A DNA stretch of 64,000 nucleotides, taken from positions 4,704,001 to 4,768,000 of the forward strand of contig CAVUSO010000001.1 of NCBI GenBank assembly GCA_963744145.1. The letters are read 5' to 3'. Under the pieces are notes generated by a model, which was not told where the DNA came from, searched no databases, and saw nothing but the letters and a program-made list of their open reading frames with translations. Position 1 is the stretch's first letter; each line of letters begins with the position of its first letter. The position numbers and the translations under genes were made by a program. Source of the stretch: an uncultured cyanobacterium (GTDB lineage Bacteria > Cyanobacteriota > Cyanobacteriia > Cyanobacteriales > CAWUOF01). This document shows, piece by piece, positions 1 through 7,307 of this stretch.

Positions 1-1737
1 TGGTGGCGACAAATTGATGACTCCAACTTGATAAAAAAGCTATCATCCAAATTAATAAAAACCGAGTTACGGGCTATTCGTAATGATTTAAACACTAGCG
101 ATGACAGTTTAGAAATAAAACTCGCTAATTTATTCAATCAATTGGCAGAACTGGGCGAAAACCCGTTTCTCTTGATTCTTGATGATTTTGAATGGAATCT
201 CGAACCCCGTCAAGGTCGATTTATTCTCAAGCCTGAAGTTGCGACAGTTTTGTCAGCATTAGTCTGGGCAATCCAAGAGACGGGAACTGGGCATCGGATT
301 TTGATTACCTGTCGCTATGAGTTTAATTCTGAGTTATTGGAATTTTTCTTCTCACAAGGTCTAGAATCTTTTAAAAAAGCTGAATTAACTAAAAAGCTGA
401 ATCGCCTAGAACATTTTAGTTCTGGTAAGCTCTCTGAATATCTACGCGATCGGGCGCTAAGTTTAGCCGATGGCAATCCTCGTTTACTGGAATATCTCAA
501 TGATGAAGTTTTAGGTAAACCAGATGCAGCAGCTAAATTAATCGAGCTAGAACAAAGTCCTGAACTGTGGAAAGACAAAATTATTTGGGAGGAACTGTAT
601 AAGGTTATTGATGAGCCATTACAACGGGTTATTAGCCATTGCCTAATCTACCAAATTCCTGTACCGATGATAGCTTTAGAAGGAGTTTGTGGCTCTCCCG
701 TAATAGCGTTGGAAAATCCCGTTTTTCGGCAGGGGAGAGCACGGAGCAGGGTAGAAGCTTATCACATAAGCTTATGGAACTTAAATAATTTTTACTTATC
801 ACCGCAAGTACGGGACAACCGAGTTTGTGACGCTCTTCCTAATTACCAACAACAGTTACAACGGGGTCAAAAACTGGGGCTTATTGAAATTAGTCCTGAA
901 ATTCAAGAAGAAAATCAAGTCTATTATGTCTCTCGAATTTTACCTCATATAATTCCCAATATTCGACTTTCTGAAGCACCAGAAGTTTATTCGTTGTACA
1001 AGAATGCTCATGAAATATTACATGAGTTATGGGGAAAAATTTACAATGAAAGTAAAGAAAAGTGGCAGGAGATTTTTCGGTTATTGTTTGCGGATAAAGA
1101 AAATCCAGAGCGATTCAGACAGGGATTCTTTAAAATGTTGGCAGTTCAATGCCATTTAGAAGCAGATGAAGCCTTAGAATCAGAAATGAGGAAACTAAAA
1201 GATGAGTTGTCAACGGAGAATTTTTGCGGTCAACTAGAGAACTATTTAAGTCAAAAAGAATGGAGAAAAGCTGATGAGGAAACTGCTTGGATCTTTTATC
1301 AAATGATGGTGCAGAAAGGCTACAAAAATTGGGATGAGTTATGTAAAAACTTTCCCAATGAAATCCTCAACCAGATTGACCAGCTTTGGGTTGATAACAG
1401 TAAAGGACGCTTTGGATTCAGTATTCAAAAACAAATTTGGGAAAGTGTTAATTCAGAAACACGTAAATCGGAAAAATTTGGAAACCTAATAGGTTGGAAT
1501 AAAATAGTAACAGAAAAATGCAATTGGATGTACTACAACACTTTGCTATTCTCGACTGAAGCTGCCACTGGAAGCCTTCCAGCCCTTTGTTATATGAAGG
1601 GAGAATTCATCAAGACAAATGGTGGAGTTTGGGTTGGTGGTTGGATGTTTTATTGTGTAGTTGGGTTTGGGTGGTTATGTGAGTGTGGGTGGGTTGGATT
1701 TCTTCTCTCACGCAAAGATATAAGTTATAAAATATAG
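1..1737 (+). CDS. NTPase-GUN4 domain protein, 5' part outside the window (paralog of 3563..6427, so probably also CHAT-fused)
   Basis: Frame is open from the window start. Walker B LILDDFE, GUN4-like motifs WRKADEET, IDQLWVDNSKGRFGFSIQKQIW and GSLP. Aligns with the 3' part of 3563..6427 and carries a 46-codon in-frame MITE insertion. Confidence 0.85.
   Translation, partial: WWRQIDDSNLIKKLSSKLIKTELRAIRNDLNTSDDSLEIKLANLFNQLAELGENPFLLILDDFEWNLEPRQGRFILKPEVATVLSALVWAIQETGTGHRILITCRYEFNSELLEFFFSQGLESFKKAELTKKLNRLEHFSSGKLSEYLRDRALSLADGNPRLLEYLNDEVLGKPDAAAKLIELEQSPELWKDKIIWEELYKVIDEPLQRVISHCLIYQIPVPMIALEGVCGSPVIALENPVFRQGRARSRVEAYHISLWNLNNFYLSPQVRDNRVCDALPNYQQQLQRGQKLGLIEISPEIQEENQVYYVSRILPHIIPNIRLSEAPEVYSLYKNAHEILHELWGKIYNESKEKWQEIFRLLFADKENPERFRQGFFKMLAVQCHLEADEALESEMRKLKDELSTENFCGQLENYLSQKEWRKADEETAWIFYQMMVQKGYKNWDELCKNFPNEILNQIDQLWVDNSKGRFGFSIQKQIWESVNSETRKSEKFGNLIGWNKIVTEKCNWMYYNTLLFSTEAATGSLPALCYMKGEFIKTNGGVWVGGWMFYCVVGFGWLCECGWVGFLLSRKDISYKI
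691..820. mobile_element. 130-bp MITE with ISL3-like ends, inserted in frame
   Basis: Imperfect TIRs GGCTCTCCCGTA / TACGGGACAACC. 8-bp direct repeat GAGTTTGT at 683-690 and 821-828. Absent from the paralog, which reads VVCAALPNY. Confidence 0.85.
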
Positions 1738-1790
1738 GCTTTTCAGGTATTTTGTCAAGCTAATTTTTTAGTTATTTTTTTACGAAAACA
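1701..1790 (+). other. Conserved GUN4-gene 3' element, copy 1 (TCTTCTCTCRCGCAAAG, stops in three frames, conserved downstream tract)
   Basis: Matches 6408-6494 (TCTTCTCTCRCGCAAAG ... TTTCAGG ... TTTGTCAAGC ... TTTTTACGAAAACA) although the upstream G/T tracts are unrelated. Confidence 0.8.
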
Positions 1791-1821
1791 TAAATAAGTA
1801 GGCGACTGAACAGCCACCTGG

Positions 1822-1896
1822 CATAGCAATTAGCCATCACAAATTTTTCAGCCACCTGGAGAATTTCTGAATTAGTCGATTTCCGTTCGTCCCAAG
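1822..1896 (-). pseudogene. Remnant of the 3' end of a RAYT/Y1-type tyrosine transposase gene
   Basis: High nucleotide similarity to 6659-6733 (CATAGCAATTAGCCATCACAAA..TTTTCAGC.ACCTGG.GAATTTCTGAATTAGTCG). Confidence 0.75.
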
Positions 1897-2079
1897 ATAT
1901 TAGTAACAAGTTAAGGTGATGGGTAAATTAGTTGCGATCGCACAATAGTATTAAATTTAATTCCTAACTGACAAATAGAAAGCGCGATCGCATTTTGTGG
2001 GAGAGCTGAGGTGCGATCGCGACTCAAAAAAATATTAATCAGGTATTTATTCTGTTAAAATTTTGAGATTGTTTTGAAT

Positions 2080-2502
2080 TTATAACTGAGTAGGAATAAT
2101 TAAATCTATAATCTGATTTTTATTCTGACGATAAACTAGAAAATCACGATCTAATGTTAATACACAACTGCCAGCAATTAACTCGGTCATTCTCACTAAA
2201 CAAGCATCGGCTAAAGACATTGGTACATTCTGATAACGTTGCAGCAGTTGTCTAATCGTTTCGCTGTCATCATTCAGTTGAAAAGGAATTTGAATAATTT
2301 TTCTACTGATTAAATTTATCACTGCGTCCTGACCTTTATAGACATCTTGCAACAGAAAACAAGTTTCTGTTATTACCCCTTCGCAAGTCAATAAATGTGG
2401 TTCAATTATTTTCCATTGTTCAATTGCCCAGGAATGTAGATTTTCTTTTTTATTAATAAATGCAACTAATACTCCTGTATCTAGTAACACTTTTTTTCTC
2501 AT
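2080..2502 (-). CDS. vapC: VapC/PIN-domain toxin
   Basis: N-terminal VLLDTGVLVA plus MSLADACLV and LTLDRDF PIN motifs. Overlaps the upstream small gene by 4 nt. Confidence 0.9.
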   Translation of the reverse strand: MRKKVLLDTGVLVAFINKKENLHSWAIEQWKIIEPHLLTCEGVITETCFLLQDVYKGQDAVINLISRKIIQIPFQLNDDSETIRQLLQRYQNVPMSLADACLVRMTELIAGSCVLTLDRDFLVYRQNKNQIIDLIIPTQL

Positions 2503-2753
2503 TTTTTACCCATTCCTTTTAGATATTCTTTATTCGTCCCTAAATCACCAGGGCCAAAATCAACAGATCCAGCAAATTCTTGGGCTGCTTCATAAGCAGA
2601 GATGGGTTGTTTTTCCTTAACTTGCTGTTTCTCCTGCTTTTGGGTTTTATATCGCAAAAACTCAATAAATTCCAAAACAGTATCCTGCTGTTCTATTGTT
2701 AGCATTTCAAGATAATCTAAAATTACATCTTTTTTATTGATCCCCATACTCAT
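2499..2753 (-). CDS. Putative antitoxin (DUF2281-like) of the VapBC pair
   Basis: 84 aa with VLEFIEFLRYK and C-terminal GPGDLGTNKEYLKG, directly upstream of the PIN gene. Confidence 0.75.
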   Translation of the reverse strand: MSMGINKKDVILDYLEMLTIEQQDTVLEFIEFLRYKTQKQEKQQVKEKQPISAYEAAQEFAGSVDFGPGDLGTNKEYLKGMGKK

Positions 2754-2770: not shown

Positions 2771-3094
2771 TTAAATTAAATCGGGATCGATTCCTTGCGA
2801 TCGCAAATAAGCAGCCAATCGTTCTTTCTGTTGTTGTTCTCGATCAGCTCGTACCGTTTCAGCATCAGTCCGTTCGGTCGGATCAGTTTCACGCCAGTAT
2901 ATCCCACTATCTTGTCCGATCGCATATTGACCATCTGGATGAAGATTTTGGAGTGTAGTTGACCGGGAGTCAGTCAGCAAGATACATTGGGCATGTTCTT
3001 GAAAATTTTTCACGAAGGTGCCGTCAGATTCAGGTAATTGAGTATGATTGGGAAAAGGAGGGGGTAAGATGGTGGGGTCAAGACTTTGGACCAT
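2771..3094 (-). pseudogene. Uma2-family endonuclease with a large internal deletion
   Basis: The N-terminus (PNHTQLPESDGTFVKNFQEH...GQDSGIYWR) joins directly to the C-terminal coiled tail (ERLAAYLRSQGIDPD). The nuclease core present in 7356..8123 is missing. Confidence 0.8.
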
Positions 3095-3232: not shown

Positions 3233-3553
3233 GTGAAAATTGAAATTGATGGTCAAGATGCGGTTAGCGCTGCTGAGGAATTGCTGAGAATTGAAGGGCT
3301 TGAAGGTAGTTGTAAAATAGTTGATAAAGTGGAGCGAGAAGGAATATTATTAGCTACGATCGCTACAATCGTAGGGATTACCAGTGGTGCTGTGACCATT
3401 GCTAAAGAAATATATGAGTGGTATCAGAAATACCAGAAATCTCAAGGGGCAAAGGCAAAAATTGAGAAAGTGCTAATTATTGGGTCTAATAATCGTCGTT
3501 TGTTGCTCAAGGATGCGACGGTAGAGCAGATTCAGAAGATTCTAGAAGATTAG
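3233..3553 (+). CDS. Small protein with one Gly/Ala-rich hydrophobic helix upstream of a CHAT protease (EACC1-like partner)
   Basis: SD AGGAG before a GTG start. Segment ILLATIATIVGITSGAVTIA preceded by VEREG. Lies 9 nt before the CHAT gene. The EACC1 resemblance is inferred. Confidence 0.6.
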   Translation: MKIEIDGQDAVSAAEELLRIEGLEGSCKIVDKVEREGILLATIATIVGITSGAVTIAKEIYEWYQKYQKSQGAKAKIEKVLIIGSNNRRLLLKDATVEQIQKILED

Positions 3554-3562
3554 GCAGGAACC

Positions 3563-6427
3563 ATGAAAATCCTCCATATTAGTTTAACTGAACAGGGTAA
3601 GGATTATGCTAGTTTGCGTTACTTTTGGAATCATCCTGCTGATTACAAAGAACACAGATTGTCTCTGGCTGAAATTAAAGATTTAGGCAATCAAGCAGAG
3701 ACTGATTACTATACTCGTATTCCTGTGGATTATGCGATTACTGGACAAGCACTCTACAACTGGTTAGATCAGAGCGATCGCGTGTTAGCCAATGCCTTAA
3801 ATCAGCCCCGTCAGGAAGGATTAGTAATTGCGATCGCGACGGATAAAGGAATGGCAAAGTTGCCTTGGGAATTATTGCATGATGGGAAGTGTTTCTTAGT
3901 AGAGAAAAGACCTGCTATTATTCCGGTGCGGTGGGTGCCTAATGGTCAACCGACGATCACGATCGCTAATTCTCCGCAAAATCGACATCTTAATCTGTTA
4001 TTTATGGCCACTTCTCCTTTAGGAGTTGAACCTGAATTAGATTATGAAGCAGAGGAAGGGAAAATTTTAAAGGCGACCCAGCGTACTCCAGTGAATTTGA
4101 GAGTAGAAGAAAGTGGCTCTTTAAGTGAATTGAGTTATCTGGTGCGGAAACAGGAAAAAGACCCAAACCATCCTGATGTTAGCTATTTTGATGTTTTTCA
4201 TTTAACAGGTCATGCAACTTATCAGGAGGGAAAACCCTGCTTTTTGACTGAAGACGAATATGGCAACCGAGTTGATAGTATTACCACAGAAATACGCGAT
4301 GCGCTGACATCTCCCTTACCGCCTTTAATTTTCCTCTCTGGTTGTCGAACTGGTTATTATTCTGAGGAAACAGTTCCCTCAATGGCAGAAGAATTATTAA
4401 AGATGGGAGGAACAGCAATTTTAGGATGGGGGGAAAGAGTCCGTGATACTGATGCAACAGCAGCTGCGTGTAAATTATATTGGCATTTGTCTCAGGGGGA
4501 AGCGGTTACAGATGCTCTATTTTCTACCTATCAAGCCTTGATTCGACAACAAGCACACGATTGGCATAAATTACGGTTATATGTGGCAAATACCTTACCC
4601 CAGATGTTAGTAACTCCTGTAAACACAAGAGGACGAACACAATTGCCTAAACCGAAATTTAGGGATAGTGATCAGCAGTTAAAAGTGGCAAGGGGTGAAG
4701 ATTTTGTTGGTCGTCGCCGTCAGCTCCAGAACTGTTTGCGAATACTAAAGATAGATAATGACAAAGTAGGAGTATTAATTCATGGCATGGGGGGATTGGG
4801 AAAAAGTAGCATTGCCATTCGACTGTCGGATCGGCTATATGAACATGAAAAAGTTCTGTGGCGACAACAAATTGATGCCTCAAGCTTGATAAAAGAGCTA
4901 TCTGATAAATTAATTAAACCAACGTTACGCGATATTCGTGATGATTTAAACAGCAATGACAGATTATATTTTAAGATAGCTAATCTATTCAATCAATTAG
5001 CAGAACTGGGTGAGAAACCGTTTCTCTTGATTCTTGATGAATTTGAATTGAATCTAGAACCCCGTCAAGATCGATACATTCTCAAACCTGAAGTTGCTAC
5101 AGTTTTAGAAGCATTAGTTAGGGCAATCCAAGATACGGGAACTCAAAATCGAATTATTATTACCTGTCGCTATAAGTTTGATTTTAATTTATTGAATTCT
5201 TTTTTCTCTCAAGGTCTAGAAGCTTTTCAAAAAGCTGAATTAACTAAAAAACTGAACCGCTTAGAACATTTTAGTTCTGATCAGCTCTCTCAAGAGCTAC
5301 GCGATCAATCGCTAAGTTTAGCCGATGGCAATCCTCGTTTACTGGAATATCTCAATGATGAAGTTTTAGGTAAACCAGATGCAGCAGCTAAATTAACGGA
5401 ACTAGAACAAAGTCCTGAACAGTGGAAAAACAAAATTATTTGGCCAGACTTGTATAAGCTTATTGATGAGCCTTTACAACAGGTTCTTAGTCATTGCTTA
5501 ATCTATGAAATTCCTGTACCAATGGAAGCTTTAGAAGTAGTTTGTGCTGCTCTTCCTAATTACCAACAGCAATTACATCGAGGGCGTGAACTGGGATTCA
5601 TTGAAATCAGTCCTGACGTTCAAGCAGAAAATCAAGTCTTTCGTTTCTCTCGAATTTTACCTCATATTATTCCTAATATCCGACTTCCTGAAGCACCTGA
5701 AGTTTATTCTTTGTACAAGAAAGCTTATGAAAAGTTACATCAGTTGTGGGGAAACAAACAAAATGAAAGTCCGGAAAAGTGGCAGGAAATTTTTCGGTTA
5801 TTGTTTGCCGATCAAGAAAATCCAGAACGATTCAGACAGGGATTCTATGAGATGTTGGCAGTTCAATATAATTCAGAAGCAGATCAAGCCTTAGAATCAG
5901 ACCTGAGACAACTGAAAAATGAATTATCAACAGATAATCTTTGCCGTCAATTAGAGGATTATTTAAGGCAACAAGAATGGAGAAAAGCTGACGAGGAAAC
6001 TGCCTGGATTTTTTATCAAGTGATGGTGCAGCAAGACTATGAAGATTGGTCCGAGCTATGCAGAAACTTTCCCTGCGAAACCCTCAAGCAGATAGATCAG
6101 CTTTGGGTTGATAACAGTCAAGGACGTTTTGGATTCAGCATTCAAAAGCAAATCTGGGAAAGTGTGGGCGGACATCCTGATGCAAAATATGAAATATATG
6201 AAAAATTTTGTGATAAAGTAGAATGGAGAAAAGAGGGCGAATGGTTGCTTTATAGTAACCTTACTTTTAATAATAACACTACTCCAGAGGGCTACCTCCC
6301 AGTCCTACCGCTCGCTCGCTTTCGCGAGTTTGGGGGTTGGTTGGGATTTATGGGGATGGGATACAAGGGGGATTGGAGATTTGTGAGGGTTGTTGTTGGG
6401 GTGGGTCTCTTCTCTCGCGCAAAGTAA
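3563..6427 (+). CDS. CHAT protease - STAND/AAA NTPase - GUN4 domain protein
   Basis: CHAT LPWELLHD with His in HLTGHA and Cys in LSGCRT. Walker A GMGGLGKS, Walker B LILDEFE. C-terminal GUN4-like motifs (WRKADEET, GRFGFSIQKQIW, GYLP). Confidence 0.9.
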   Translation: MKILHISLTEQGKDYASLRYFWNHPADYKEHRLSLAEIKDLGNQAETDYYTRIPVDYAITGQALYNWLDQSDRVLANALNQPRQEGLVIAIATDKGMAKLPWELLHDGKCFLVEKRPAIIPVRWVPNGQPTITIANSPQNRHLNLLFMATSPLGVEPELDYEAEEGKILKATQRTPVNLRVEESGSLSELSYLVRKQEKDPNHPDVSYFDVFHLTGHATYQEGKPCFLTEDEYGNRVDSITTEIRDALTSPLPPLIFLSGCRTGYYSEETVPSMAEELLKMGGTAILGWGERVRDTDATAAACKLYWHLSQGEAVTDALFSTYQALIRQQAHDWHKLRLYVANTLPQMLVTPVNTRGRTQLPKPKFRDSDQQLKVARGEDFVGRRRQLQNCLRILKIDNDKVGVLIHGMGGLGKSSIAIRLSDRLYEHEKVLWRQQIDASSLIKELSDKLIKPTLRDIRDDLNSNDRLYFKIANLFNQLAELGEKPFLLILDEFELNLEPRQDRYILKPEVATVLEALVRAIQDTGTQNRIIITCRYKFDFNLLNSFFSQGLEAFQKAELTKKLNRLEHFSSDQLSQELRDQSLSLADGNPRLLEYLNDEVLGKPDAAAKLTELEQSPEQWKNKIIWPDLYKLIDEPLQQVLSHCLIYEIPVPMEALEVVCAALPNYQQQLHRGRELGFIEISPDVQAENQVFRFSRILPHIIPNIRLPEAPEVYSLYKKAYEKLHQLWGNKQNESPEKWQEIFRLLFADQENPERFRQGFYEMLAVQYNSEADQALESDLRQLKNELSTDNLCRQLEDYLRQQEWRKADEETAWIFYQVMVQQDYEDWSELCRNFPCETLKQIDQLWVDNSQGRFGFSIQKQIWESVGGHPDAKYEIYEKFCDKVEWRKEGEWLLYSNLTFNNNTTPEGYLPVLPLARFREFGGWLGFMGMGYKGDWRFVRVVVGVGLFSRAK

Positions 6428-6620: not shown

Positions 6621-6953
6621 CTAAGAATCATTGAAAAACTGTGCAGCGACCTTGGGGTCATAGCAATTAGCCATCACAAACTTTTCAGCTACCTGGCGAA
6701 TTTCTGAATTAGTCGGTTCCCATTCATCCCAAGGCAATTTCATCTGTCCAGGAATACGTCTTTTCGTTTCCTTTGCACTCAAAACCTTGGGCAGTAATTT
6801 ACTTCCCCAGTGACAACGGTTTTCCGGTTTGGGTTGAGGTTTATATTTCTTACAGAACTTGCGATATTTCTCGGCACATTCATCCAAACTTTTCCCCAGA
6901 GCCAAAAAAGCAGGATGCCACTGAGTTAGTCCATCATCGCTCAATCGGTCATA
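6621..6953 (-). pseudogene. C-terminal part of a cyanobacterial RAYT/IS200-like (Y1) tyrosine transposase, 5' truncated by a MITE
   Basis: YDRLSDDGLTQWHPAFLALG...CAEKYRKFCKKYKP...VAEKFVMANCYDP resembles, from recollection, the C-terminus of cyanobacterial Y1_Tnp proteins. The frame runs into the MITE end at 6954. The HUH core is absent. Confidence 0.65.
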
Positions 6954-7307
6954 TACAGCAGATTCGGTCGTTGATGAAGTACAGTAAGATTTGGCATGAA
7001 TGGCGATCGGTTAAAGTCGCTTGTGAGTGATCTGTGTTGGTTGGGCAGGTTTATGATAGTTATCTGTTTGCAGCAGAATTGATTGGTGAACCTGCCCCTA
7101 CAAATCCCGGTTGATTGTGATCATAAATTCATTCACCTGCCCCTACAAATCCTGTTAATCTTGTAATCCTCTAATCCTGATCGATTTTTTGGTGAATCTC
7201 TGTAGGGATGGGTCTACTGAAATTTTTGCTATTTACCCACTAATCATCACGCACCCACCCCCACCCACAGATCAATCTGCTCAATGTATCTTCATAGTCA
7301 ATTGGTA
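6954..7307. mobile_element. Chimeric MITE carrying REP-like repeats
   Basis: Left end TACAGCAGATTC...TGATGAAGTACA resembles the ends of 16246-16572. Right end TGTATCTTCAT..AATTGGTA resembles the end of 44635-44931. Internal GGTGAACCTGCCCCTAC repeats. Confidence 0.75.

Follow-up and report, generated by a model that had tools for sequence, protein, structure and literature searches.

A variable G/T-rich spacer before a box read in three frames at the ends of cyanobacterial GUN4-like sensor genes

Introduction

The window analysed here is a stretch of 64,000 nucleotides (nt) from an uncultured cyanobacterium (positions 4,704,001 to 4,768,000 of contig CAVUSO010000001.1, called C1 below). Its first gene, gene 1, ends in a GUN4-like domain that is followed by a coding tract of 80 nt, at positions 1621-1700, in which C is absent and A is rare. 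The question raised by this locus is how such DNA came to stand at the end of a protein. The original prediction was that it may come from biased nucleotide addition or repeated micro-insertion rather than from ordinary codon evolution.

The tract is probably the purest, and one of the longest, of many copies of a variable spacer that is carried by most GUN4-like sensor domains of the genome and by those of many other cyanobacteria. The spacer would consist of frame-blind G/T-rich DNA placed before a conserved box. Among the immune or cell-death switches predicted in multicellular cyanobacteria, STAND, CHAT and kinase proteins with a GUN4 end rank with the most frequent. Full-text literature searches returned nothing in print on the tail or on the box. 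In the available portions of the papers on these proteins, the GUN4 sensor end is treated simply as a tetrapyrrole-binding or tetrapyrrole-sensing domain (PMC7159879; preprint 10.1101/2022.07.19.500537; PMC2853523; PMC7517822).

The G/T-rich tract of gene 1

Gene 1 (1..1737, + strand) is an open reading frame (ORF) whose 5' part lies outside the window. The entire protein, P0001, has 1005 amino acids (aa) and is a CHAT / STAND-NTPase / GUN4 fusion with matches to the families PF12770, PF00931, PF13191 and PF05419. The GUN4-like domain (1228..1605, + strand, aa 410-535) is matched by Pfam PF05419 at E=1.9e-25 over profile positions 9-131 of 141, and its score of 90.1 bits, against a curated cut-off of 29.2, places it in that family. 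Alignments of gene 1 to the GUN4 structures in the PDB end where the Pfam match ends. The last conserved motif of the domain, read from the sequence, is G-S-L-P (1570-1581, + strand), the family form of which is G-H-L-P. It is followed by a variable spacer of 39 codons, ALCYMKGEFIKTNGGVWVGGWMFYCVVGFGWLCECGWVG (1582..1698, + strand), and then by the gene 1 copy of the 3' box, TTTCTTCTCTCACGCAAAGATATAAGTTATAAAATATAG, which opens with CTTCTCTCACGCAAAG.. at 1699 and is read as FLLSRKDISYKI* (1699..1737, + strand; direct reading and family consensus).

The count of the tract agrees with the original prediction: 38 G, 35 T, 7 A and no C. The maximal C-free run around it is 85 nt long (1617-1701; 38 G, 37 T and 10 A), and together they make up the 3' two thirds of the spacer. 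No other C-free run in the window is as long; those that follow measure 54 nt (6184-6237) and 47 nt (3032-3078), and the three 80-nt windows of highest G+T content (73 of 80) are those starting at 1620-1622. In the whole genome (7.70 Mb) the run ranks seventh among the 40 C-free runs of at least 60 nt on the + strand. All six longer runs are visibly periodic, so that it is the longest non-periodic one there. The extreme single-base-free runs of the genome also include other GUN4 ends, at 416491-416567 and 277820-277887. As a separate observation, such runs are dominated by long periodic C-free or G-free arrays built of GGTGTGGGTGTG.. units or of TTGGGG/TTGGGTTGGG units, among them those at C1:7240817-7241134, 2423401-2427051 and 7203640-7203884.

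The tract itself has no fixed period, as had been noticed from the letters. Tandem Repeats Finder returned no row for window 1500-1800, and repeated k-mers are in no significant excess over dinucleotide shuffles (k=6, P=0.054; k=7, P=0.086). The tract holds a single, weak 13-nt direct repeat pair of 85% identity. It also contains five GGG runs, from which a G-quadruplex could be built only with one loop of 15 nt. An origin of the gene 1 tract by micro-duplication was considered and rejected on the grounds of the non-significant k-mer repeats, the lack of a Tandem Repeats Finder row and the weakness of the one 13-nt repeat. The proposed search of the genome for a template or donor, on either strand, ended without one: the longest exact match is 16 nt, and 30 dinucleotide shuffles gave 14-17 nt.

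In frame 1 the tract is translated into GGVWVGGWMFYCVVGFGWLCECGWVGF, the G/W/V/F/C-rich peptide originally described. The peptide belongs to the ORF 1..1737, beyond the Pfam GUN4 match, and its residues, aa 541-567, lie outside the matched profile positions (the match ends at 131 of 141). The suggestion that an A-poor tract tends to stay open in any frame was half right, for each of the two other frames has one stop within 1621-1701. The third-position bases of the tract are A.15, C 0, G.33 and T.52, compared with A.35, C.15, G.18 and T.32 in the remainder of gene 1; the bias thus extends to the third codon position.

The spacer across the GUN4 family

The genome has 54 GUN4 matches. The ends were read for 44 of them, the 10 weakest or fragmentary ones being left out. 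Spacers were defined for 38 of the 44; the six omitted are the canonical Gun4 and five copies that have no motif or an atypical, long tail. The 3' limit was set by hand for 15 of the 38. In all 38 domains a spacer of 11-41 codons lies between G-H-L-P and the end of the gene, cannot be aligned between copies and is encoded by G+T-rich DNA, in which the share of C is 0.10 and that of A is 0.17. Similar spacers occur in other cyanobacterial genera. The residues of the 38 spacers include 21.1% G, 11.5% V, 8.4% W (six times the proteome) and 4.9% C (five times the proteome). No blocks common to the spacers were found: they share no substring of more than 14 nt, and mononucleotide shuffles come within about 1 nt of that length.

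The bias is strong at synonymous sites when the other 37 spacers (880 codons, gene 1 left out) are pooled and the amino acids are taken as given. G at the third position (G3) occurs 293 times against 184.9 expected (z=+11.9), A3 174 times against 237.9 (z=-5.6) and C3 82 times against 117.0 (z=-3.6). The usage of individual codons is shifted accordingly (GGG 0.37 vs 0.15, GTG 0.43 vs 0.20, TTG 0.39 vs 0.15, AGG 0.22 vs 0.05). The domain bodies have no such third-position bias (G3 z=-3.1). The result was replicated with 430 codons from 23 loci outside this genome (A3 z=-5.6, C3 z=-6.8, G3 z=+6.3, T3 z=+6.4), in which the three codon positions hardly differ in base composition. The bias is therefore not confined to codon positions 1 and 2, the pattern that the original prediction had named as evidence against an unusual origin.

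The border of the biased region is sharp. In eight bins upstream of G-H-L-P the z-score of G+T at third positions (GT3) lies between -7.1 and +1.4, and within the spacer it is +4.0 in the first five codons, +5.1 in the middle and +4.3 in the last five. There is no leakage of a mutational bias into the synonymous sites of the adjoining domain in these upstream bins. The bias follows the strand of the gene, on both chromosome strands. The amino-acid make-up of the spacers agrees with the expectation from nucleotide frequencies as well in the unused frames (r=0.93) as in the real frame (r=0.92). The composition is equal at all three codon positions and the unused frames look the same; the spacer appears to evolve as DNA and not as codons, and a peptide rich in G, W, V, F, C and L is merely what G/T-rich DNA encodes in any frame.

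A C-terminal transmembrane tail anchor was tried as a description of these tails and rejected. The Kyte-Doolittle maximum over 19 residues reaches 1.6 or more in only 4 of the 38 tails (gene 1, 1.55), and many tails contain 4-9 charged residues.

The box and the triple stop

Directly 3' of the spacer lies the box, approximately CTCTTCTCTCGCGCAAAGACTTGTAA and in a fuller form about CTCTTCTCTCGCGCAAAGACTTGTAACCTGTAAGATATAA, which is conserved as DNA and from which the conservation extends into non-coding sequence. Among the 301 genomes of the class, 34 have the 20-nt core of the box with two mismatches or fewer, and by genus the count is 28 of 144; a reversed control pattern gave 2 matches. The box is rich in pyrimidines (CTCTTCTCTCGCGC...) and consequently gives an ending of the L/F/S-R type in every frame. 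Frame A (CTT CTC TCG CGC AAA GAC TTG TAA) is translated as LLSRKDL*, frame B (CTC TTC TCT CGY GCA AAG ACY TGT AAC CTG TAA) as LFSRAKTCNL* and frame C (TCT TCT CTG GCG CAA AGA CTT GTA ACC TGC AAG ATA TAA) as SSLAQRLVTCKI*. These three seemingly different C-termini are one DNA element.

All three frames are in use. The search with the box gave 49 matches in the genome itself and in foreign genomes, of which 10 were dropped (upstream ORF shorter than 100 aa, or G+T below 0.58), leaving 39 loci. The codon offsets 0, 1 and 2 are represented by 5, 8 and 3 of the 16 loci of the genome and by 5, 11 and 7 of the 23 foreign loci. A box-blind set was obtained through NTPase motifs. This search returned 79 loci, 43 of which reach the GUN4 part and were examined; the box is present in 16 of them at 7 mismatches or fewer in 26 positions and in 14 at 5 or fewer. 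The offsets in these 14 loci are 5, 6 and 3. Among 118 foreign homologous proteins, a strict regular expression assigned 23, 20 and 20 to the three endings and left 55 unassigned, many of which are variants or truncated.

The box runs into a series of stops. In 17 of the 39 box loci stop codons are found at +3, +10 and +17 after TTG, and in 20 of the 39 all three frames are stopped within 20 nt, compared with a mean of 1.3 and a maximum of 7 in shuffles. The first stop belonged to the search pattern; the second and third did not. In gene 1 the three stops, one in each frame and 7 nt apart, are TAA at 1721-1723, TAA at 1728-1730 and TAG at 1735-1737, and the gene thus possesses every part of the GUN4-end module: the G-S-L-P motif, the spacer, the box and one stop per frame within about 20 nt. 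Since the ending can be read in three frames and each frame has its stop, the spacer may change its length by any number of bases.

The DNA of window 1678-1791 matches three other GUN4 ends, and the conserved columns go on past the box. A non-coding stretch after the stop of gene 1 (1745..1790, + strand; TTTCAGG..TTTGTCAAGCT..TTTTTACGAAAACAT) is common to the 3' flank of gene 2, the paralogue described below, and to other GUN4 gene ends. No significant fold was found in the 46 nt after the box, the folding energy of which has a mean z of +0.19 against shuffles, with z below -1 in 4 of 39 loci; in some of the loci a stem CTGTARC..GYTTCAG is possible. A scan of window 1500-2100 against Rfam gave only two rows at chance level (E about 1). 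The complement of the box consensus contains TTAC twice, 7 nt apart, a pair that is taken here to resemble the target sites of IS608-type elements. Two proteins, one from Kamptonema animale (P0003) and one encoded at locus L047, have tails with two box endings in a row (..SLFSRRKTFISLFSRKDL and ..LFSRTLFWHRAPRTLFSRTDL), and in these the box seems to have been duplicated.

Switching of the reading frame

A switch of frame is seen within the window. Gene 2 (3563..6427, + strand; ORF and Pfam) is a complete paralogue of gene 1, 954 aa long and 63% identical to it, with CHAT, AAA_16 and GUN4 matches. Its spacer, recognised by the same reading, has 35 codons and a G+T content of 0.74 (6302-6406, + strand). 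C-free runs of 54 nt (6184-6237) and 42 nt (6365-6406) occur in the end of the gene. The gene 2 box (6407-6427, + strand) is read as LFSRAK*, in a frame different from that of gene 1 (LLSRKD..).

Such switches were counted on a tree of 45 domain bodies of about 120 residues, from which the tails were excluded. The frame states require 20 changes on this tree, and shuffled labels require a mean of 20.5 (P=0.49), so that the use of frames is unclustered. The branches with a Shimodaira-Hasegawa-like approximate likelihood ratio (SH-aLRT) support of at least 95 (7 of 42 inner branches) force, by themselves, 5-7 changes per frame class, and many of the switches are thus independent. Two frames occur within one strong clade of four copies from the genome, three of which belong to one tandem gene array, and the frames differ in one strongly supported foreign pair. 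The reading of the same downstream DNA in three frames, together with the unclustered use of these frames, indicates that this stretch is not evolving by ordinary in-frame codon change.

Four tandem GUN4 genes, about 3.3 kb apart, are located at C1:1293545-1303365 and have a near-identical variant of the box, TCTCTCGCGTCGAGACTTGTAGAC. Three of the genes read this variant as SLASRLVDCNI*, the remaining one as LLSRRDL*.

Four near-identical tandem GUN4 domains, each with a spacer of its own, are present in a 1066-aa open frame of a Ser/Thr kinase at C1:~7458200-7461400 (- strand). The repeats are 92-96% identical over about 390 nt upstream of the spacer, and the box agrees at 23-26 of 26 positions. 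The spacers are 39-53% identical, as expected by chance for DNA of two letters. Translation continues through the box of repeats 1-3, as ..SLFSSLDSN.., into the next domain, and in repeat 4 the box is read in another frame, where the protein terminates with ..LFSRL*.

In five orthologue-like proteins, with 76-84% identity just before G-H-L-P, the tails cannot be aligned and the endings are in all three frames. A conserved orthologous peptide, which the original prediction had set against an unusual origin of the tract, is therefore not found among orthologues, nor among the paralogues. The kinase repeats and the five orthologue-like proteins point to a divergence of the spacer that is fast relative to its flanks.

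The Y1 transposase beside the box

Remnants of a long Y1 (IS200-like) transposase gene follow six boxes of the genome, those of genes 1 and 2 and four others. The remnant after gene 1, convergent to it, comprises about the last 26 codons (1823..1900, - strand; tblastn match C1:4705823-4705900). The copy after gene 2, recognised by homology, lacks its N-terminal part, has 127 codons and is likewise convergent (6624..7004, - strand). The C-terminal motif ..PGQ..LPWDEWEPTNSEIRQVAEKFVMANCYDP is common to the remnants in the window and to intact Y1 ORFs of three genomes. A fuller homologue of the remnant is matched by Pfam Y1_Tnp at 8.3e-19; the scan of the remnant itself against NCBIfam gave no family.

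The association is not confined to this genome. In four of five other genomes tested, a convergent Y1_Tnp match is contained in an open frame of 248-332 aa about 0.5 kb after the box, and in one of these it is the only Y1_Tnp match of the genome. At three loci in three other genomes, intact convergent Y1 ORFs (248-267 aa) end 125-175 nt after the box.

Short blocks of sequence (CATTT(T)CTAC.G.CATAAT.CACCT; GTTACCTGGCACCTG) are kept in three genera at the loci L054, L058 and L064, about 70-175 nt after the box and up to the end of the Y1 gene. The flank of gene 2 has a similar block, GATACCTGGCAC.

A possible course of events

Sensor GUN4 domains are C-terminal modules of CHAT/STAND, kinase and other signalling proteins, with the spacer placed between G-H-L-P (G-S-L-P in gene 1) and the box. 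On the interpretation favoured here, any change in the length of the spacer would be tolerated, and the protein would still end properly. Insertions and deletions, or replacement of the whole spacer, would be responsible for the switches of frame over the time of gene duplication or speciation. A would be kept low because it creates stops. Avoidance of stops readily explains the low A of the spacers, in which stops of the unused frames have a density of 5.2%, compared with 9.1% in domain bodies; it does not explain C, which is as rare as A. The box itself may be held constant by a function at the level of DNA, most plausibly recognition by the Y1 enzyme. It is possible that spacers are created at rare joining or repair events beside the box, perhaps with participation of this enzyme.

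The results show the segment after G-H-L-P in sensor GUN4 domains to be no conserved part of the fold. It would instead be a frame-blind spacer of odd composition joined to a DNA element that is common to several genera and tied to a Y1 gene. For annotation, the three apparent C-termini should be treated as one DNA element, and the tails should not be read as conserved peptides. The module would be a concrete candidate route for the diversification or shuffling of sensor ends, and a clear natural example of how a single DNA sequence is kept readable in all three frames.

A stronger form of the idea, which is doubtful, is that the GUN4 end is a purpose-built, frame-agnostic diversification module, in which a domesticated long Y1/HUH enzyme recognises the box and opens the DNA at its 5' edge, and repair or joining writes a new, untemplated G/T-rich spacer of arbitrary length. 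If it were true, dozens of immune-type sensors could acquire new C-terminal specificities, and this would amount to junctional diversity without a reverse transcriptase. The three-frame ending and the triple stop would then guarantee a complete protein after each writing event.

Evidence against and alternative explanations

Several results weigh against the frame-blind spacer and its link to the box. Two of the three sets of loci were found with the box itself, and conservation within its 20-nt core is therefore partly by construction. In the box-blind sample the 60 nt before the box have a mean G+T of 0.65 (range 0.45-0.88; gene bodies, 0.50), and 0.65 or more is attained in 7 of 14 loci; the G/T bias is a tendency and not a rule. 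Paralogues are not independent of one another, and all z-scores given above are inflated by this to an unknown degree. When the peptide and the codon usage of the genome are allowed for, the synonymous-site excess of gene 1 alone is weak and post hoc (GT3 23 vs 18.1 expected, P=0.019; C3 0 vs 3.1 expected, P=0.03). In the tree of frames, 20 of the 42 inner branches, computed from about 120 residues, are unresolved. The near-identical flanks of the kinase repeats could be due to gene conversion that halts at old heterology, and do not necessarily imply a fast change of the spacers. The intact long Y1 gene of the genome (C1:6189069-6189440) has no box within 700 nt of its 3' end.

Openness in all frames, which the original prediction had suggested as a property of the tract, is not under selection in the spacers. 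The number of stops in the unused frames of the spacers, 91 of 1762, is what codon shuffles give (93.4; z=-0.4). Only 6 of the 38 spacers are open in all frames. Since off-frame stops are not depleted, spacers are not selected to be frame-proof, and a single frameshift would in many cases truncate the protein.

The tempo of change was followed in five clusters of proteins at 90% identity (Microcystis, Woronichinia and three others), each with 6-14 members that include the C-terminus. Variable columns make up 2 of 38 in the tails of the first cluster (body, 3.4%), 0 of 40 in the second (3.6%), 0 of 44 in the third (4.3%), 6 of 44 in the fourth (7.3%) and 0 of 75 in the fifth (22.1%). There is no excess of tail variability over the bodies in these five clusters of other cyanobacteria, and hence no sign of an ongoing rapid generator. 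Change of the spacer is slow, or it is episodic and tied to rare events, and this also counts against the interpretation. The 40 relatives compared include no member of the same genus; among foreign DNA the top match is one of 68% over 347 nt, and the closest foreign proteins are 59-67% identical. The DNA occurs in one public run (X1, soil metagenome contigs), the contig of which is identical over window 1200-1811 and so carries no information on variation.

Four other explanations have to be considered beside the frame-blind spacer. Ordinary selection on the protein, by which a Gly/Trp/Val-rich hydrophobic tail (a membrane anchor or a pocket lid) would be formed through in-frame codon change and G/T would simply follow the residues, is improbable. 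In its favour, Gly and Trp somewhat exceed the values predicted from the nucleotides (15.6% and 5.2%, respectively), as does Ala, and Arg is lower than predicted (4.5% vs 7.8%); the bias of gene 1 is mostly accounted for by its peptide and the genome codon usage; and the tails are stable within species-level clusters, as purifying selection predicts. In a 180-residue AlphaFold2 (AF2) model of gene 1, moreover, the terminal LLSRKD forms a short predicted helix (residues 165-171) with a predicted local distance difference test (pLDDT) score of 66-73 in that block. The same model, however, gives means of 56 and 51 for the 10-residue blocks of the spacer, against about 90 for the domain. This explanation is also contradicted by the excess of third-position G/T that remains when the amino acids are given (z=+11.9, and replicated), by the same composition in the unused frames and by the low hydropathy of all but four tails. 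Equally difficult to reconcile with it are the use of three frames for the downstream DNA and the 5-7 or more switches that are forced in each class.

De novo creation of the spacer by untemplated or slipped, G/T-biased synthesis, at the repair of a break (for instance one made by a Y1/HUH enzyme) or at the joining of box and GUN4, in the manner of N regions, is closest to what was originally predicted, and is unlikely as the explanation. The sharp borders on both sides of the spacer agree with it, and so do the arbitrary, frame-blind lengths, the resemblance of the spacer to random G/T-rich DNA with no frame signature, the absence of a donor in the genome and of blocks longer than 14 nt common to the spacers, and the linkage of a Y1 transposase gene to the box in several genera. 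The stability within clusters would fit an episodic, event-linked origin. On the other hand, no enzyme of such a bias was identified in this analysis, half of the box-blind loci have no G/T-rich spacer, the genome's intact long Y1 gene is not beside a box, and gene 1 has no internal signal of micro-insertion or duplication. Of the original prediction, the general idea that the tract is not a product of ordinary codon evolution is thus supported; the particular mechanism of biased addition or micro-insertion finds no donor, no micro-duplication and no strain-level variability to stand on. Strand-specific hypermutation, in which the coding strand would be exposed in an R-loop, a G-rich fold-back or DNA opened by the transposase and would suffer C to T and A to G deamination, is quite improbable. 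The two depleted bases are indeed those that deaminate, and C, which does so faster, is the more depleted (in gene 1, no C and 10 A in 85 nt); the bias also tracks the gene strand on both strands of the chromosome. It does not leak, however, into the synonymous sites of the adjoining domain or into the C/T-rich box, there is no variation within clusters, and deamination is unable to change length and frame. An active contingency or diversity-generating locus, varying at present by slippage of repeats or by a retroelement of the diversity-generating (DGR) type, is very improbable. Many spacers do contain homopolymer runs of G and T, and related cyanobacterial STAND/CHAT proteins are, in the available portions of two papers, known DGR targets (PMC10907252; PMC7517822). 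There is no tandem repeat at the tract, though, and no template repeat in the genome, the differences are not A-specific, the tails are invariant in three of the five clusters and elsewhere no more variable than the bodies, and the sole public run with this DNA has an identical contig.

Relation to known systems

The frame-blind spacer and its box can be compared with the canonical GUN4/Ycf53 proteins (PDB 1Y6I, 1Z3X, 4YKB, 7E2R), to the family of which aa 410-535 of gene 1 belong. The genome's own canonical copy has G-H-L-P and then ..LLNHP. In canonical Gun4 a fixed segment of 13 residues follows G-H-L-P (LTNQLRGVRVINS in this genome), whereas the sensor paralogues have the variable, G/T-encoded spacer in its place.

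Repetitive extragenic palindromic (REP) sequences are associated with Y1 transposases of their own, the RAYTs (REP-associated Y1 transposases), and IS200/IS605 elements have characteristic ends. The GUN4 box resembles them in that it is a short DNA element, dispersed in many copies at the 3' ends of genes, one copy of which has a Y1 (HUH) transposase gene beside it, single-copy in at least one genome. It differs in that all copies of the box seen share one orientation, lie where a GUN4 domain ends and are translated, and in that no significant hairpin was found. A precedent for the triple stop is offered by insertion-sequence ends at which translation is stopped in every frame.

The conflict proteins of the STAND, CHAT and kinase type that are diversified by DGRs in multicellular cyanobacteria are proteins of the same kinds, with a variable C-terminal sensor part, according to the available portions of the reports (PMC10907252; PMC7517822). 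DGRs depend on a template repeat and a reverse transcriptase, and the changes they make are A-specific and fall within a C-type-lectin fold. At the GUN4 ends, in contrast, there is no template repeat differing mainly at adenines, changes affect length and frame, and the tails show no excess of variability within clusters at the species level. Tandem Repeats Finder returned nothing for 1500-1800, where a phase-variable locus would have a tandem repeat or a long homopolymer, and the tails of the five clusters from other species are not hypervariable.

The telomeres of budding yeast consist of irregular TG(1-3) repeats, one strand of which is a non-periodic series of G and T runs almost without C or A. 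The likeness of the tract to these repeats is one of composition only, for the tract is internal and coding; a telomerase-like enzyme or a C/A-rich template was not sought.

Other features of the window

Gene 1 contains, at about 687-822 (aa 229-274), an in-frame insert of 46 codons that is lacking in gene 2. The insert is a dispersed repeat, of which the genome has 11 further copies at 74-88% identity. It resembles a miniature inverted-repeat transposable element (MITE) that lies in frame within a coding region.

Between the two GUN4 genes, at 2083-2753 (- strand), a gene for a PIN-domain protein (140 aa, E=4.6e-9) and an upstream ORF of 84 aa with no Pfam match share 4 nt. The layout of the two is that of a VapBC-type toxin-antitoxin pair. 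Another ORF, at 3233-3553, encodes 106 aa with no Pfam match and stops 10 nt short of the start codon of gene 2.

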